From: a virus
Taxonomy: Duplodnaviria; Caudoviricetes
Reading direction: 5' to 3' (one strand)
IMG/VR virus record: IMGVR_UViG_3300035208_002115
Length of the DNA: 64,000 nt
Shown here piece by piece: positions 6,582 to 50,836 of this stretch (position 1 is the first letter of the stretch; each line of letters begins with the position of its first letter). Below the pieces are notes generated by a model. The model was not told where the DNA came from and ran no database searches. It saw nothing but the letters and a program-made list of their open reading frames with translations. The position numbers and the translations under genes are program-made.

Positions 6582-6593
6582 AATATTTTATTT

Positions 6594-6602
6594 TAATATA
6601 TA
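6594..6602 (+). promoter_or_regulatory. putative phage late promoter TAATATATA
   Basis: Recurs just upstream of virion-type genes: 10715, 38198 (+); 7934, 10686, 33525, 35613, 45879, 50766 (-). A gp55-like sigma gene is present. Confidence 0.65.
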
Positions 6603-6621
6603 GTAAAAAATAATATTTTGA

Positions 6622-10680: not shown

Positions 10681-10748
10681 GATATTATATATTAAAAATA
10701 TCACCCGTATTTTTTAATATATAAGAAAATAAATAATAACATTTTAAA

Positions 10749-23650: not shown

Positions 23651-23676
23651 ACCAACTTTAGCGAGTTGGTTTTTTT
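23651..23676 (+). terminator. intrinsic terminator
   Basis: ACCAACT...AGTTGGT followed by a T run. Confidence 0.7.
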
Positions 23677-23708
23677 ATATATAACAGAATATAAAAAATT
23701 CTAATTAC

Positions 23709-31628: not shown

Positions 31629-31907
31629 ATGTTTTTTAAAAATAAAAGAATAAAAAAGAATAAAATTCTTTCGACACCATTGATAAGTGTTATATCAAAT
31701 CTAAGTGTTATGAATCAGTCATTGAATAGTGGGAATACAAACACACCAATACGAACATCACAATCATATACACCCTCTTATATATCTGGTTCAACTATGA
31801 CTATTGAAGGTAATTGGGAAATGGAACGTGAAAGGAAAAGAATTGAAAGAAAAGGTAAGATAGAAGAATTATTCCCAGAATTAATATCTTTGTTAGATAA
31901 TGACTAA
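31629..31907 (+). CDS. small tagged protein
   Basis: ERKGKIEELF near the C-terminus. Confidence 0.7.
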   Translation: MFFKNKRIKKNKILSTPLISVISNLSVMNQSLNSGNTNTPIRTSQSYTPSYISGSTMTIEGNWEMERERKRIERKGKIEELFPELISLLDND

Positions 31908-32148
31908 AAAAATAAAGAACTTGAAATTAACATCCAAGGTGGTTTCAGTTAAAACAAGATGTATTAATGCTACAATAACACCTGAAATTATAACTGATTT
32001 ACAATCATTGGTTTTTAAATCGGAATGGATTCATGAAGATTTATTACATATTTTACGAGAAGAAGAACGCCAAAGAAAAAGGAAAGAACGTCAAGAAAAA
32101 TTAAAAAATATATTTGATGATGAAAACGATGGTATTTGGGACGTTTGA
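31900..32148 (+). CDS. small tagged protein with gp23-like fragment
   Basis: LTSKVVSVKTRCINATITPEIITDL plus ERQEKLKNIF. Confidence 0.7.
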   Translation: MTKKIKNLKLTSKVVSVKTRCINATITPEIITDLQSLVFKSEWIHEDLLHILREEERQRKRKERQEKLKNIFDDENDGIWDV

Positions 32149-32302
32149 TTTAGTGTCATCACCATCACATAGTAATAGTAGAATATATCCGAAAGATGTG
32201 TTTTTGAAGCATATAGAAGAATTAAATAGGCGCATTAATAGAGAGCAACGTAAAGAAAAAATTATTCAAATATTTGGCGATGAATTATTCGAAGGATGTT
32301 AA
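32114..32302 (+). CDS. small tagged protein with prohead-protease-like fragments
   Basis: TFDLVSSPS and NSRIYPKDVFLKHIEEL plus QRKEKIIQIF. Confidence 0.72.
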   Translation: MMMKTMVFGTFDLVSSPSHSNSRIYPKDVFLKHIEELNRRINREQRKEKIIQIFGDELFEGC

Positions 32303-32450
32303 AGATGAAGATATAATTTTAAGTGGTGATTATGTAACTTATCAAGACCATAAATTTGTTGTAGACAATGTTAATTATACACCCCGTCAGAGAAAAATTT
32401 TGATAAGAAAAATGAAGTTGAATAAAATTTTTGGTTATGAATTTAAATGA
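32280..32450 (+). CDS. small tagged protein (56 aa, not in ORF track)
   Basis: MNYSKDV...IRKMKLNKIFGYEFK. Confidence 0.65.
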   Translation: MNYSKDVKDEDIILSGDYVTYQDHKFVVDNVNYTPRQRKILIRKMKLNKIFGYEFK

Positions 32451-32601
32451 AAGTAAAATCGAGTTGTTAATGGACTTGCAGCGATACTGTGGTTTCGAGG
32501 TGAATTTTATATTAAATCAACTTGGGTTAGTTTCACCAGAAGAAAAACGCTTTGAACGTAAAGAAAAACTTAAAGAAATATTTGGAAATGATTTTCAATA
32601 A
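32437..32601 (+). CDS. small tagged protein (54 aa, not in ORF track)
   Basis: MNLNESKIELLMDLQRYCGF...ERKEKLKEIFGNDFQ. Confidence 0.68.
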   Translation: MNLNESKIELLMDLQRYCGFEVNFILNQLGLVSPEEKRFERKEKLKEIFGNDFQ

Positions 32602-32788
32602 AAAGGAATATGTTACAAGAGAGGAATACGAAAATTTATATGAACGACTTGAACAATGTATATCATATTCTGAACATCTTGCAAAAGCAATTAATGTGTT
32701 ATATAAATCATTTGAAAGTATATTACCGCCAGAAAGACTTAAAATATTAAGAAAATCAAAAATAGAAGAAATATTTGATGCCGAATAG
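32588..32788 (+). CDS. small tagged protein with scaffold-repeat-like fragment
   Basis: LEQCISYSEHLAKAI plus LRKSKIEEIF. Confidence 0.7.
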   Translation: MIFNKKEYVTREEYENLYERLEQCISYSEHLAKAINVLYKSFESILPPERLKILRKSKIEEIFDAE

Positions 32789-33032
32789 TGGAATAACAAT
32801 ATGGGGCAATAACACACTCACTCAAATAAGTGATTTATCGGATTATGGTTGTAATATGGAAACATATTTGACTGATATATTGACTGAAGAATTATCAAAA
32901 GAAATTGATAAACAAATTATTGAAACCCTGATGAACGACCCCATATGGAAAGAAGAACGAGCAAGGATAATATTACGAGAAGAAAGAAATAAAAAAATTC
33001 AAGAAATCTTTGGTGATGATTTTACTGTGTAA
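32778..33032 (+). CDS. small tagged protein with sheath-like and gp23-like fragments
   Basis: GITIWGNNTL; LTDILTEELSKEIDKQII; ERNKKIQEIF. Confidence 0.72.
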   Translation: MPNSGITIWGNNTLTQISDLSDYGCNMETYLTDILTEELSKEIDKQIIETLMNDPIWKEERARIILREERNKKIQEIFGDDFTV

Positions 33033-33036
33033 TTTT

Positions 33037-33504
33037 TTATTTAAATTTGTTAAATAATTTCTTAATAAGTGGTAAGTCATACCATTTTTCAACACCGTTT
33101 GGTGCTTCAGCATCATAATGTTTTCCGTTATAATATATCCACACATGATTTATCTCATCATTAACTTTATTAATATTAACTGGTGGATAACCCCAGTAAT
33201 CGAGCATGTTTTTACCCCAAATCCCATATTCGGTTTCAATAATATTATCCCAATTTTCTTTAGCGAATTCGGGGTCTCTATAATTAAAAAACATATCACC
33301 ACTTAATTCGAAAAGTGTTTTTGTATAACCACCCATTTTATTGATAATTTCACCTGCGAAATCATCACACATTCCATTATTTATATCCCAATTTGTACAA
33401 CTATTTTCTTCTCGGTATTCTTTAGATGTTTGTTTTATAAGTTTGGTTATATCAGGTGAAACATTTTCATTTAAAAAATCATTGAAATTGGTTTTAATAA
33501 ACAT
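33037..33504 (-). CDS. putative internal head protein with Cys-His-Asp (transglutaminase/papain-like) triad
   Basis: NFNDFLNE leader; NGMCDDFA, HVWI, YDAE. Confidence 0.55.
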   Translation of the reverse strand: MFIKTNFNDFLNENVSPDITKLIKQTSKEYREENSCTNWDINNGMCDDFAGEIINKMGGYTKTLFELSGDMFFNYRDPEFAKENWDNIIETEYGIWGKNMLDYWGYPPVNINKVNDEINHVWIYYNGKHYDAEAPNGVEKWYDLPLIKKLFNKFK

Positions 33505-33563
33505 ATCTCTTAAATATTTTTTATTATATATTAAAATTTTGAAATTATAATTAACTTTGTAAT

Positions 33564-33758
33564 ATGAATATATTAGAGCAACAATCTTTAGGTCGTGTAA
33601 TAAGAACCCAGAAAAAAATAATAATTAATAGTGTATATGGTGGTTCATCTATGAAATACCCAGTATCTATTACAATGGTGTTTCCACGCAAAAGCTATAC
33701 GAGAAAACTAAAATTAGAAAAAATATTTCCAGAGTTTAAAAATGAAAAACACAAATAG
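33564..33758 (+). CDS. small tagged protein with helicase motif VI-like and PolB motif B-like fragments
   Basis: QSLGRVIR; KIIINSVYG; TRKLKLEKIF. Confidence 0.72.
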   Translation: MNILEQQSLGRVIRTQKKIIINSVYGGSSMKYPVSITMVFPRKSYTRKLKLEKIFPEFKNEKHK

Positions 33759-38669: not shown

Positions 38670-40457
38670 TTAGAATTGAGCTTCACCACCGCCTTGGGCT
38701 GCTCCACCACCTTGGGCTGCTCCACCACCAGTTTCACCACCACCTTGGGCTGCTCCACCACCAGTTTCACCACCACCTAATTCAGTCTGTGCGCCAGCAG
38801 CTTGTGAACCAAATTCACCACCACCGCCAGCTCCACCACCTAAATCAGCTCCACTTGTAACACCCATATCACTTCCACCACCTGCTCCACCTGCTCCACC
38901 TTCACCAGCAGGGGCAGATTTACCAGCTATAATAGGCATATATTTATACTTATTATTTTCTTGTATATCTTTTTCACTCAACATCATAATATTTCTGGCT
39001 AACCATTCTGGGTGAAAATATGAATTACCTTCTATATCTGTAAAATTTGATGTTAATGTTGAAACTATTTCAGCACGTTTAGCTAAATTGTTTAACCGTT
39101 TCCATTCTTCAAATAATTCGTCTTTATTAAAATTTAATTTCAAAGAAGAATTAAATACATTATCATTTTCCAATTCTGGAAAATCTAATATCATTTGAAT
39201 TTTAATCGGTTTAATTAATAATTCTTTAAAAACGGTTCTCGAACGATTAACATAATTTTTAAATTTAATTTCTTCTCTTGTTATATCAGATGCATCGGCA
39301 GAATAAATACTTCCACCACCAGATTCTGAATCAAATCTTGATAATGGTAATCTTGATGACCTTTTAAGGTTATTAGAAAACCATTGTAAAACAACATCTT
39401 CATTCAAGTTAACACCATCTGGTGATGTGACCTCAACTGTTGGTGATGTTCCCTCAGATGAAGGAAACCAGAAATCTTTTGAGTGAGGAATATTAGCACT
39501 ACCATTAATTTTAACTGTACCAAGTCTATCATCCCACTGAACATCTTCATGGTATTCACTCATCAACTGAAATATTTGTTGTTCAGCTTGCGCTCTGGTT
39601 AAACCATCAGTAGGTATAATAAATTTTTTATAAATAGCTGCTTGGTTAATATTATATAAAAGTTTTGTTTGTTCTAATAATTTTAGTTGATTATAAGGTC
39701 TAATTAAACTTTCAACATAAGAAGTTTCATTATAATCATTATTATTAGAATATGATATATAAATAATATTTGTATCTAATATAATTCTTCTTAATTGCGG
39801 ATTGTCTGGATTTTGTACCCAAACAATTGTCCCAGTAGTAGGTTCGGTTGCAACTACTATTGTGATAGGGTCAATTTTATTTAAAGAAATAATGTTTTTT
39901 TGTTTATTATCATAAACAACTTCAAACACTATATATCCATCAATAAGTAAATCCCTAAAATAGTTCCATGCCAATGCACCATCAGCGAATCCGAATAAAT
40001 GATAAAGTCTTTTAAAATTTTCATGTAATTTATCACGTATTTGAGATGAAAAATCATCTGGAAGGTCATTCATATATGCAAAAAAGTTGTCCGAATTGTA
40101 AATGATGGCTTCATCTGCCATTTGATTTAAAAAATCACGGATTTCTTCTTTAATAGAATATTGTCTTAATATTTTTCTTTTATCGAAATATGAACGGTCA
40201 AGATATGCTATTGATTTTTTTTCAAGCATTTTTGATATAATTCGCTTGGTGAATATATCATACATACCCGGCCCTTCAGTTACATTTCCTACATTTGAGG
40301 GGTCGCTTGGGTTTTCAGCAAAACCAATTAATTGAGTATTTCTAATAACTTGGTCTTGCCAGTTTTGTCCAAAACTGGATAATCGTCTTAATGTTCGATT
40401 AAAAAACCCACCTGAATAAATTCCATTATTTGCACCTGTATTATCGTAACCTGCCAC
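38670..40457 (-). CDS. portal protein (T4 gp20-like) with Gly-rich C-terminal tail
   Basis: FRDLLIDG, SYVESLIRPYNQLKLLE, DFWFP, LPLSRF, ITREEIKF; GTG start. Confidence 0.92.
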   Translation of the reverse strand: MAGYDNTGANNGIYSGGFFNRTLRRLSSFGQNWQDQVIRNTQLIGFAENPSDPSNVGNVTEGPGMYDIFTKRIISKMLEKKSIAYLDRSYFDKRKILRQYSIKEEIRDFLNQMADEAIIYNSDNFFAYMNDLPDDFSSQIRDKLHENFKRLYHLFGFADGALAWNYFRDLLIDGYIVFEVVYDNKQKNIISLNKIDPITIVVATEPTTGTIVWVQNPDNPQLRRIILDTNIIYISYSNNNDYNETSYVESLIRPYNQLKLLEQTKLLYNINQAAIYKKFIIPTDGLTRAQAEQQIFQLMSEYHEDVQWDDRLGTVKINGSANIPHSKDFWFPSSEGTSPTVEVTSPDGVNLNEDVVLQWFSNNLKRSSRLPLSRFDSESGGGSIYSADASDITREEIKFKNYVNRSRTVFKELLIKPIKIQMILDFPELENDNVFNSSLKLNFNKDELFEEWKRLNNLAKRAEIVSTLTSNFTDIEGNSYFHPEWLARNIMMLSEKDIQENNKYKYMPIIAGKSAPAGEGGAGGAGGGSDMGVTSGADLGGGAGGGGEFGSQAAGAQTELGGGETGGGAAQGGGETGGGAAQGGGAAQGGGEAQF

Positions 40458-40462
40458 GTTTA

Positions 40463-40798
40463 TTATTGACTATTTTTTAAAGAATTAATTGGAAACCAAT
40501 ATTCTTTTTTAAAAGGTATTTTTATATTACCGTTTATTATCAATTCTTTAGAAGTATTTTTAATATCATTCACATTGATTACTTCATATGTAAATGGTAA
40601 ATTTGCATCACCATTTATTTTAACTTCACCAAGACTATCATCCCATTGAACATCTTCATGATATTTTCTCATCAACTCATGAACTTGTTCTTTAGCTTCT
40701 TCTCTGGTTATACCATCAACTGGTATAATGAATTTTTTATGATTAAATTCAGTATGTTTTTTTTTAAATCTTTTATCAATAAAACTAAATAATCCCAT
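40463..40798 (-). CDS. mini paralogue of the portal clip segment
   Basis: KKFIIPVDGITREEAKEQVHELMRKYHEDVQWDDSLGEVKING vs portal KKFIIPTDGLTRAQAEQQIFQLMSEYHEDVQWDDRLGTVKING. Confidence 0.85.
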   Translation of the reverse strand: MGLFSFIDKRFKKKHTEFNHKKFIIPVDGITREEAKEQVHELMRKYHEDVQWDDSLGEVKINGDANLPFTYEVINVNDIKNTSKELIINGNIKIPFKKEYWFPINSLKNSQ

Positions 40799-40916
40799 TT
40801 TTATGATATTTTATTTTATCTATATATAAAAATATTAAGTCTTTGTTTATTTTTTAGTTCCAATACTTATAAATTAAGAATATAAGGCTTGGGTCTTATA
40901 ATATTAGATTATTAGA

Positions 40917-41636
40917 TTATTTACTTATATTTTCAGATAATTTGTAATTTTTCTCAAATGCTTTTAATTTTTTATAAAATGCTTTTGTATCTTCATCATA
41001 TTCTAATTTTATATTATCATATTCAGTTATTATATCTTTTAATTTCGTTTTAAATCCTTCAGAATCGGTCTTTTCGACAAGTTCTTTCATTAATGCTGAA
41101 TTAACGTAACGAGTATTCAGAAATATAAATCTATCCATGATATTCGTGGATATTATATTTACTTCTTCTATTTTTAGAACATCAAATGCAGTCACGGAGA
41201 ATTCAAACCCACCATTCTTTTTTAAAGCTTTGTAAATATTTTCGAATGTTATACCTTTTAGAGGCATCTCACTTGATACATCAGATATATCAATATTTTT
41301 ATCAATAATAGATTGATATAAATAAAATAATTGACCAAAGAATTCTATTTTATACTCATATGGTAAATAATCCAGATTTATACAATAAAGAATGTTTTTA
41401 TTTTTCCACACTTTATATTCTAATGGTAATATCGGACAAAATATTTTATTACCATTAAAATTATATAATATAAGATAGAAATGACCTATGGATAGATTTT
41501 TTAAAGAAATAGTTTTAAATTCATTATTTTGATGTTTTCTTAAATAAAAAATTCGTTCAGTAGATTCAAGTGTAATAGCAGTTAAATTATATGAATACTG
41601 ATTAAAAATATTATAACCTTGTTCTTTTAGATTCAT
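40917..41636 (-). CDS. gp2-like DNA end protector (tentative)
   Basis: GHFYLILY ... CINLDYLP resembles the GxNLHYLP motif; adjacent to gp4. Confidence 0.5.
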   Translation of the reverse strand: MNLKEQGYNIFNQYSYNLTAITLESTERIFYLRKHQNNEFKTISLKNLSIGHFYLILYNFNGNKIFCPILPLEYKVWKNKNILYCINLDYLPYEYKIEFFGQLFYLYQSIIDKNIDISDVSSEMPLKGITFENIYKALKKNGGFEFSVTAFDVLKIEEVNIISTNIMDRFIFLNTRYVNSALMKELVEKTDSEGFKTKLKDIITEYDNIKLEYDEDTKAFYKKLKAFEKNYKLSENISK

Positions 41637-42130
41637 TTCAATATTTTAGCTTTTTCAAGATGTTTTTCAGTTATAATCACAAATTGTAAACCTCTTTTAG
41701 CACACCATTCTACTGCTTGACTCCATTTCAATTTATTTTTTATATAGGTCTTTAATGAGTACTCAAAATTTTGTAGAGATTTTATAGATTCTTTCATTGG
41801 TTTTTGTGGCGGTTGAGTTTCTTTATATGGTTTTAGTTCAACTACCACTTTATCTATCTTTTCAGGGTCTGATTTGTTTACACATTCATAATAAAAATCT
41901 GGATAATAACGATGAAAATTACCAAGTGTATCTTGATATGTTATTGTAATTCCTTCTGAGTTCCACTTAGTAACATTTTCGTTTAAATCCAGAAATGAAC
42001 AGAATTTCATTTCCCACGAAGAACGAAATGCAATTCTTGTTGGGTCACCCATATACTTTTCTGGATTAATTAATTTGTAATATCCTTGGTGATATTTTTG
42101 AGACTGATTTGGTTTAGAAATATTACCCAC
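41633..42130 (-). CDS. head completion nuclease (T4 gp4-like)
   Basis: QGYYKLINPEKYMGD, RSSWE, HRYYPDF, ELKP, KW, ITE. Confidence 0.9.
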   Translation of the reverse strand: MGNISKPNQSQKYHQGYYKLINPEKYMGDPTRIAFRSSWEMKFCSFLDLNENVTKWNSEGITITYQDTLGNFHRYYPDFYYECVNKSDPEKIDKVVVELKPYKETQPPQKPMKESIKSLQNFEYSLKTYIKNKLKWSQAVEWCAKRGLQFVIITEKHLEKAKILK

Positions 42131-42139
42131 ATATAAATT

Positions 42140-43030
42140 TTATTTTTTAATCATATGTTGACAAACAATGTTTATCCATTTATTTTTAACACATGTATTA
42201 TAAGCACTGACACATCCGTGTTCAAAACTATGCTTACTATTATATTTTAGTGCTTCTTCTTTGCATTTTTCAAATGTCCAATAACCTCTCGGTTTTTTAA
42301 TGCTTTGCAAGTCTTTGGTTAGTTCTTTATACCACCCATGTCTCGTTGACGAACGGTATGCACCACTATATTTTTTTCTAAATTCATTTTTAGTTTTACA
42401 ATTTATTATAACTTTTTTACAGTTATCATATGTCCACATTAAATTTGAACCACCAAGACCACCTGTTTTAGTTTTATTTAATATATTAAACCCATGTAAT
42501 TTAAAAATATTTAACCAAAATTCTTCTAATTTTTGCGATTCTTTGTATGATATATATCCAGTTAATTTTATAAAAGATGGTATTAACCCACTTTTAACAA
42601 TATATTTATTAACCAAACTTTTTTCAGTTTCTAAATGTTGTTTTTTTCTTTTAATAAAATTATATGTCAATCCAATGTACACACTACCATCAGAAAAATA
42701 TACCATATATATTAAACGATTAAATCTATCTCCTGACACTTCCATGTGTTTACATACATCATCAATCCAATTATTTTCTAAGCATTTCATATAAGCTGAA
42801 GTTGACTTTTTAGAAAATTCTCCTTTAGTATTATATTTTAATGCTTCTTTTTTACAATTTTCATATGTCCATATAACAATATGACCATTTGAACGGGACA
42901 TATGTTTACAAATATCATCTAACCATTTATTTTTACGGGAAGTTTCATAGACTTTATTATGATTTTTTCTAAAATCACTTCTTCTATTATATTTAGATGC
43001 AACTTTCTCACAATAATAGTAATCTAACAT
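42140..43030 (-). CDS. GIY-YIG homing endonuclease with repeated WTxExC modules
   Basis: LIY....VYIGLT...R..QH; WTYENCKKEALKY-like unit x3. Confidence 0.8.
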   Translation of the reverse strand: MLDYYYCEKVASKYNRRSDFRKNHNKVYETSRKNKWLDDICKHMSRSNGHIVIWTYENCKKEALKYNTKGEFSKKSTSAYMKCLENNWIDDVCKHMEVSGDRFNRLIYMVYFSDGSVYIGLTYNFIKRKKQHLETEKSLVNKYIVKSGLIPSFIKLTGYISYKESQKLEEFWLNIFKLHGFNILNKTKTGGLGGSNLMWTYDNCKKVIINCKTKNEFRKKYSGAYRSSTRHGWYKELTKDLQSIKKPRGYWTFEKCKEEALKYNSKHSFEHGCVSAYNTCVKNKWINIVCQHMIKK

Positions 43031-50745: not shown

Positions 50746-50836
50746 TATTTAAATTAATTTAATCTTATATATTAAAAGGTAGTCTGTCATTTTTTTTATT
50801 TGAATAAAATATATATTTTTGTTATGATTAAATTAA

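Follow-up and report, generated by a model that had tools for sequence, protein, structure and literature searches.

In phage T4, the clip of the portal protein gp20 (residues 279-358) is the docking site of the packaging ATPase gp17 and, at a later stage, of the neck protein gp13, and the terminase-contacting tip comprises N291, M292, R295 and K296 (Sun et al. 2015, PMC4493910). According to work cited in that paper, a 24-residue gp20 peptide (288-311) binds gp17 and inhibits packaging; it is the nearest experimental precedent for a free piece of clip. Portals are also sensed directly by Avs4 and Avs11 (bioRxiv 10.64898/2026.01.04.697583). Separate small genes derived from larger proteins are represented by eukaryotic microProteins, which are dominant-negative small paralogues, and by Bodo saltans virus, in which ankyrin-repeat ORFs carry fragments of essential genes and a decoy role for these has been proposed (PMC5871332). 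Our literature search for portal fragments or paralogues returned no publication on free-standing portal clip genes, and neither Pfam nor PHROGs holds a family for them.

The gene described here lies in a 64,000-nt stretch (the window) of a 675,678-bp IMG/VR virus record from an uncultured phage, whose closest named relatives are the huge phages LR756500-504 and LR745206 (462-735 kb), including the 735-kb genome of Al-Shayeb et al. 2020 (PMC7162821). It is a small minus-strand ORF, hereafter the mini-gene, and its surroundings are those of a head module, with the portal gene and capsid-related genes nearby (Table 1). Each of the seven huge phages checked has the gp4-like gene and the gene of about 240 aa ahead of its portal; the latter family has no Pfam or PHROG match. 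We considered the TnsA-like gene upstream as a candidate homing endonuclease and rejected it on its PHROG match to the T4 gp4-like head-completion gene. Two relatives used throughout, the 640-kb phage L005 and contig L011, share the GTG start of the portal gene. The portal tail (window 38670-38925) is Gly/Ala-rich and of low complexity, with repeated units of 30-33 nt, and differs in length between the window and L005. Elsewhere in the window, a 493-aa DNA polymerase B fragment is directly followed by a row of small ORFs (31629-33758) that share a basic tail and then an I-F-G-D/E-type motif.

Table 1. Features of the mini-gene locus and copies of the promoter-like motif, in window coordinates; identities are at the nucleotide level
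Feature	Coordinates	Strand	Own portal	L005	L011	Remarks
GIY-YIG gene	42140-43030					Head module
T4 gp4-like head-completion gene, TnsA-like fold	41633-42130					phrog_218, E 1e-44
Conserved 239-aa gene	40917-41636					Head module
Promoter-like motif TTTTWATATATAR, 13 nt	40820-40832	-				22 nt upstream of mini-gene ATG
Other copies of the motif	6591-6603, 10685-10697, 10712-10724, 23672-23684, 33524-33536, 50765-50777
Clip mini-gene	40463-40798	-				Open ORF, 111 codons + stop, ATG start
Codons 1-19, mini-specific basic N-terminal leader	40742-40798	-	33%	93%	93%
Codons 20-32, first clip strand and tip loop, near own portal	40703-40741	-	85%	69%	90%	One portal-derived site shared
Codons 33-40, start of clip helix with acidic pair E33, E34	40679-40702	-	62%	75%	62%
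Codons 41-68, portal-converted tract: helix end, hairpin, first ING..IP unit	40595-40678	-				See next two rows
 codons 41-50			87%	67%	57%
 codons 51-68			80%			Absent in L005 and L011 orthologues
25 in-frame codons missing from L005 and L011 orthologues	40574-40648	-				Placement by alignment
Codons 69-111, ancestral tail: second ING..IP unit and EYWFP	40466-40594	-	68%	71%	74%
T4-type portal gene, 595 aa	38670-40457	-				GTG start; Pfam Portal_T4, E 7.5e-68
Portal codons 276-324, paralogous donor segment (outer clip)	39486-39632	-				Protein and DNA match
Protease-scaffold gene, then major capsid gene						Same head module, after small ORF and portal

We found that residues 20-68 of the ORF match portal residues 276-324 at 33 of 49 positions (67%; E 2e-23 by BLASTP), and that the corresponding DNA (40596-40745 versus 39487-39636) is 80% identical over 150 nt without a gap. 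The sequence-only reading had described an intact frame of 111 aa that copies about 50 aa of the portal at high similarity in both protein and DNA, repeats the ING..IP unit and ends in EYWFP where the portal has DFWFP, and all of this was borne out: the second ING..IP unit and the EYWFP terminus are both present. The 60-nt core of similarity that it gave (40621-40680 versus 39511-39570) does lie inside the 150-nt match, although its register is off by one base. The counterpart of the ORF within the portal is limited to portal residues 276-334. Against the Pfam Portal_T4 profile (PF07230) the ORF scores 19.6 bits, under the gathering cut-off of 22.9, and aligns to profile positions 209-255 of 433 only. 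PHROGs has no family for the ORF, nor for its 173-aa and 189-aa relatives, beyond weak portal matches.

Portal residues 243-501 align to T4 gp20 249-501 (HMMER), and the copied piece therefore corresponds to gp20 residues ~282-340; this falls within the clip (279-358; PMC4493910), in agreement with the earlier assignment of the segment to the terminase-contacting clip of gp20. The mini-gene is thus homologous to the T4 clip (PF07230; PDB 3JA7, 6UZC) over the first strand, the tip, helix alpha-6 and the hairpin. Unlike the T4 clip and peptide, it stands alone as a naturally occurring gene, 111 codons long and provided with a leader, and it has no wing, stem, crown, channel loop or tunnel loop, so that the full portal architecture (wing, stem, clip and crown; ~500-600 aa) is not present. 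Residues A289 and Q290 of the window's portal align with R295 and K296 of T4, and E33 and E34 of the ORF align at the same two positions, in a mapping that leans on T4, whose portal is only distantly related. The contact tip therefore reads E-E in the mini-gene, A-Q in its own portal and R-K in T4.

The TATATA noted earlier upstream of the ORF proved to be part of the 13-nt motif TTTTWATATATAR, whose core is invariant in the orthologues. The window contains seven copies of this motif against 0.3 expected, and none of 100 shuffles reached seven. An ATG follows at least six of them at a distance of 25-31 nt, and none of the genes that the copies precede is of known function. Only the 13-nt form is enriched; a 10-nt version of the TATATA element is not (30 copies versus 22 expected), and a sigma-70 type scan is uninformative in the AT-rich DNA of the window. 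In L005 and L011, about 60 nt before the ATG are conserved, with an invariant ATATATAGA, despite an endonuclease gene inserted further upstream. The motif probably represents a promoter class of this phage. No copy belongs to the portal gene itself, whose GTG follows the ORF stop after only 5 nt. The shared upstream motif and this short gap suggest co-expression with the portal, and the two genes likely form one transcription unit with coupled translation. Such an arrangement could also mean that the ORF merely sets portal translation by termination-reinitiation and that its peptide is irrelevant, as might be supposed from a stop codon 5 nt before the portal GTG and a portal without a separate promoter-like motif. 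We consider this very improbable, because the ORF is conserved at the protein level and homologous to a defined domain, because the portal is expressed in more distant relatives that lack an ORF of this kind, and because other members of the family described below are far from any portal.

A length-restricted search recovered two intact relatives with 52-53% identity, P0002 (82 aa) and P0003 (87 aa), of which P0003 is encoded on L011; L005 carries an orthologue of 84 aa. In both L005 and L011 the orthologue stands directly before the portal gene, at the same place as in the window. All length differences among the orthologues are in frame, and the final residues of the L005 orthologue are altered by a frame shift at its very end. 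In both relatives the interval from the 239-aa gene to the mini-gene holds a GIY-YIG homing endonuclease gene (L005 5213-5950; L011 432-1301), which is absent there in the window, and this junction is a hot spot for homing endonuclease genes. As judged from the orthologues, the mini-gene already existed before these phages diverged and is no isolated, recent duplication. The sequence-only reading had held that absence or frameshifts in relatives, together with a lack of expression, would mean a recent neutral partial duplication, and had proposed to look at conservation and dN/dS; the intact orthologues in L005, L011 (P0003) and P0002 contradict that scenario.

By the Nei-Gojobori method with bootstrap confidence intervals, dN/dS for the mini-gene is 0.40 between the window and L005 (CI 0.18-0.82), 0.62 between the window and L011 (CI 0.32-1.29, an interval that spans 1) and 0.40 between L005 and L011 (CI 0.19-0.84). 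The portal gene gives 0.02-0.07 and the 239-aa gene 0.07-0.12, and the non-synonymous evolution of the mini-gene is 3-14 times faster than that of its neighbours. Constraint is uneven along the gene. Codons 1-27 have a dN/dS of about 0.1 in two of the three pairs, with dS at 0.69-0.95, which indicates constraint on the protein and not merely on the DNA; the remaining codons give 0.6-0.7. Thus, the mini-gene is a real small gene, kept by selection and changing far more rapidly than the genes around it.

The window copy is a mosaic (Table 1). A 147-nt segment contains 14 sites that distinguish the window's portal from that of L005, and at 13 of these the ORF agrees with its own portal. When the sites were polarised with the portals of L011 and LR756501, six of the shared states proved to be derived in the window's portal and one derived state was unshared; codons 41-68 share five substitutions that are derived in the window's portal. 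The 13 of 14 matching sites and the derived shared states point to ectopic gene conversion from the resident portal. On this evidence, codons 41-68 were overwritten by conversion from the phage's own portal, 1.1 kb away, after the split from the L005 lineage, and codons 20-32 were probably overwritten as well. The same comparison indicates that the conversion added the 25 in-frame codons, creating a second, partial clip unit. The acidic pair survived, as it sits in the sole block (codons 33-40) whose similarity to the portal does not exceed that to the orthologues. The conversion may have begun with a double-strand break, cut by the endonuclease found at this junction in the relatives. The earlier description of the ORF as self-derived therefore holds for the middle of the window copy, which was overwritten from the resident portal, and fails for the gene as a whole, which is older and belongs to a wide clip-only family.

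The fresh conversion scar and the 25-codon insertion, the endonuclease genes at the junction in relatives, and a dN/dS of 0.6-0.7 over most of the gene together raise the question of whether the mini-gene is a functionless by-product, left over from recombination or from homing-endonuclease-triggered repair and open by chance or through DNA constraint as a leader of the portal operon. We judge this improbable. Four lineages keep the frame open in an AT-rich genome, and every indel is in frame; the low dN/dS of codons 1-27 in the presence of appreciable dS speaks for protein constraint; and 101 clip-only clusters have common sharp boundaries and conserved core residues, as described next.

A profile built from the four orthologues was searched against 1.84 billion representative proteins and gave 158 matches. 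Among the best 150 of these, full-length portals account for only 22, and the other 128 are proteins of less than 450 aa. We scored the short matches with a portal model built from 29 portals: 101 of them cover only model columns ~256-345 and constitute clip-only clusters, and a minority are true portal fragments. These clip-only mini-proteins (minis) are complete short ORFs that hold the outer clip alone. All but one of the 101 start with M, their median length is 106 aa and their median flanks are 24 aa (N-terminal) and 7 aa (C-terminal). The module has sharp boundaries at portal-model columns ~268-331, and the orthologue P0004 covers columns 270-331. Ten clip-only proteins compared with Pfam matched Portal_T4 at profile positions ~205-270 only. 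Seven minis (P0045, P0057, P0067, P0028, P0112, P0125 and P0096) contain two tandem clip units, and internal duplication of the clip unit thus recurs in the family, as in the window copy. In a tree of low resolution based on 73 columns, minis and portals are interspersed and the window subfamily forms a clade (SH-aLRT 90). Judged by these alignments, the mini-gene belongs to a large, previously undescribed family of clip-only proteins in huge and other T4-type phages.

A match in addition to that of the portal was obtained in each of the seven huge-phage genomes tested. In LR756502 it is strong (E 3e-22); the extra match of LR756504 and a second match in the window's genome are weak (E ~1e-3). 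A complete 243-kb genome and a 114-kb fragment also have a match outside the portal, and a complete 130-kb genome has none. The second clip-like match in the window's own genome (E 0.0025; G000:C1:577179-577292, L016:1575-1925) is 3.8 kb beyond the end of the window, in an ORF of 116 aa that has retained the first strand and the helix alone.

The other minis share with the window ORF the module boundaries, the core and the acidic pair, and often a basic N-terminal leader; however, most are far from the portal, whereas the window subfamily is directly upstream of it. In LR756501 (L001:3806-4327) and in the two smaller records with a match, the 243-kb genome and the 114-kb fragment (L099:1489-1908 and L105:1507-1707), the mini follows an RNase H-like gene directly and overlaps its stop codon; the window's genome has no mini after its RNase H-like gene. 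Many other minis carry a DPYGEE-W type tag or extra portal pieces: that of LR756501, for instance, is a mosaic of three portal pieces (~66-89, 279-334 and 253-285) plus the DPYGEE-W motif. The window subfamily lacks such a tag, and the window copy is distinguished by its second, partial clip unit. In LR756502 (L014:272-769, 1348-1809) and LR745206 (L017:908-1381, 1378-1632) the mini adjoins an ORF of 157-165 aa that resembles the N-terminus of the major capsid protein, so that adjacent genes encode parts of two structural proteins. In LR745206 the 84-aa ORF has the look of a circular permutation, with the W-F-P end first and the first clip strand last. We searched 80 IMG/VR loci and found 79 portals, none of which has a further clip ORF within 3 kb. 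The portal-adjacent position is therefore special to the lineage of the window, and it is confined to this one small lineage.

The varied genome positions of the minis, some of them beside replication genes, and the capsid-like ORFs adjoining those of LR756502 and LR745206 would suit a role in evading immunity. A free clip would bind portal-recognising host sensors (STAND NTPases of the Avs4 or Avs11 type) and prevent their assembly on the real portal, as one case of a wider habit in these phages of making small copies of pieces of core proteins. Direct sensing of the portal by Avs4 and Avs11 (bioRxiv 10.64898/2026.01.04.697583) fits this proposal, as do the 3- to 14-fold faster non-synonymous change of the mini-gene relative to its neighbours, the tagged array of core-protein fragments at 31.6-33.9 kb in the window's genome, and the same role proposed for the fragment fusions of Bodo saltans virus (PMC5871332). 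In Bodo saltans virus, as here, parts of a large virus's essential proteins are retained in ORFs of their own; there, however, these are ankyrin-repeat fusions in a giant virus of a eukaryote, and here there is only a 19-residue leader. We nevertheless regard the decoy role as unlikely. A fragment that mimics the trigger could equally activate the sensor; a mini-gene coupled to the portal would not be made before the trigger is; and Avs proteins are described as recognising folds through extended interfaces, which a piece of ~60 residues may not provide.

The residues common to minis and portals are F, I and P in the first strand, A, L and Y in the helix, G and N in the hairpin, and P, K, W and P at the end; in the window ORF, F23, I25, P26, A35, L42, Y46, W101 and P103 are invariant or nearly so. 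The tip residues are different. At the column equivalent to T4 R295, an acidic residue is found in 3 of 86 portals (which mostly have Q) and 56 of 99 minis, and at the column equivalent to K296 in 3 of 86 portals (again mostly Q) and 59 of 100 minis (P ~1e-16 and P ~1e-17, respectively, by Fisher's exact test, which ignores the shared ancestry among minis). Both columns are acidic in one of 86 portals and in 40 of 102 minis. The window ORF has E33-E34 in place of A289-Q290 of its own portal.

Between a fifth and a third of the minis, including the window ORF, start with a short basic, hydrophobic leader. The pattern, which we defined after seeing the data, is present in 21 of 106 minis and in 29 of 1103 ORFs of the window's genome. 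The sequence-only reading had stated that the ORF has no tag. It does lack the C-terminal tag of the 31.6-33.9 kb array, ending shortly after W-F-P; it does have a basic N-terminal leader of the kind enriched among clip minis. We rejected the leader as a genome-wide tag, since it is only slightly enriched (11 versus 4 ORFs at a threshold of at least 6 bits). An origin of the leader from the N-terminal segment of the portal is clear for the 173-aa ORF of LR756501 (E 9e-8) and unsupported for the window subfamily, where a tiny search gave E 0.03.

AlphaFold2 models built on 54-62 family sequences have a mean pLDDT of 65-66, and only the clip helix (residues 32-46) is modelled confidently (pLDDT 84-91). 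Of the models, only that of the window ORF shows a hairpin after the helix, and its inserted unit is predicted to be disordered. The best rows of a Foldseek search against the PDB are T4 gp20 (3JA7, 6UZC), at 3.5 A rmsd over 49 columns and with E above 1, which is not significant; the ESM Atlas gave nothing usable. The poor monomer model would fit a piece that folds only in a complex, and adds no independent support.

The sequence-only reading had suggested a packaging regulator or a decoy for portal-sensing immunity, and both are plausible candidates. Of the readings considered, we tentatively favour, at slightly less than an even chance, a soluble mimic of the clip that would bind one of the clip's partners. 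The putative mimic would fold on binding and occupy the site of that partner, candidates being the large terminase, a neck or head-completion protein, and neighbouring portal subunits, and docking at the portal vertex would thereby be tuned or blocked. Its only functional precedent is the T4 gp20 peptide 288-311. Among the observations that count against a mimic are these: its tip residues are unlike those of the resident portal, so that it need not have the same partner or the same binding mode; dN/dS outside the first 27 codons is 0.6-0.7, with the interval of one pair including 1; and 79 related portal loci do without a clip ORF within 3 kb.

The difference in tip between the mini and its resident portal may also be seen as that of a weapon against co-infecting relatives: a dominant-negative piece would enter or cap foreign portal rings, or titrate the terminase of a competitor, and the phage's own machinery would tolerate it. 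Conservation in the minis extends to the clip strands through which portal subunits pair with one another, the homing endonuclease genes at the same junction in L005 and L011 imply that related phages meet and recombine here, and the logic resembles that of eukaryotic microProteins, since the mini likewise keeps only the interaction part of a large multimeric protein; this likeness, here in a phage, concerns descent and the kept interaction domain, not dominant-negative action. The minis, however, do not cluster away from the lineage of the resident portal in the tree, and conversion towards its own portal in the window copy argues against selection to differ from self. We therefore think this account distinctly less probable than a sensor decoy.

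A broader proposal, put forward as speculation, is one that we consider, on balance, rather unlikely. Huge phages would make free, re-charged motor-docking tips as trans-acting agents, acting as packaging blockers in competitors or as sensor decoys, within a strategy of 'fragment mimicry' that also copies pieces of capsid, protease and polymerase; in the lineage of the window, conversion would hold the mimic in step with the resident portal, while selection would preserve its altered tip.

What is new at this locus is a mini-gene coupled to the portal gene, together with a record of conversion in which the mini-specific tip residues were kept. Docking of the portal and the terminase is a central and poorly resolved step in the assembly of tailed phages, and the portal is also a trigger of bacterial innate immunity. 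Widespread free clip domains with a systematically altered contact tip would offer a handle on both docking and immunity: the family predicts a binding partner, and its members may be natural packaging inhibitors or immune decoys.
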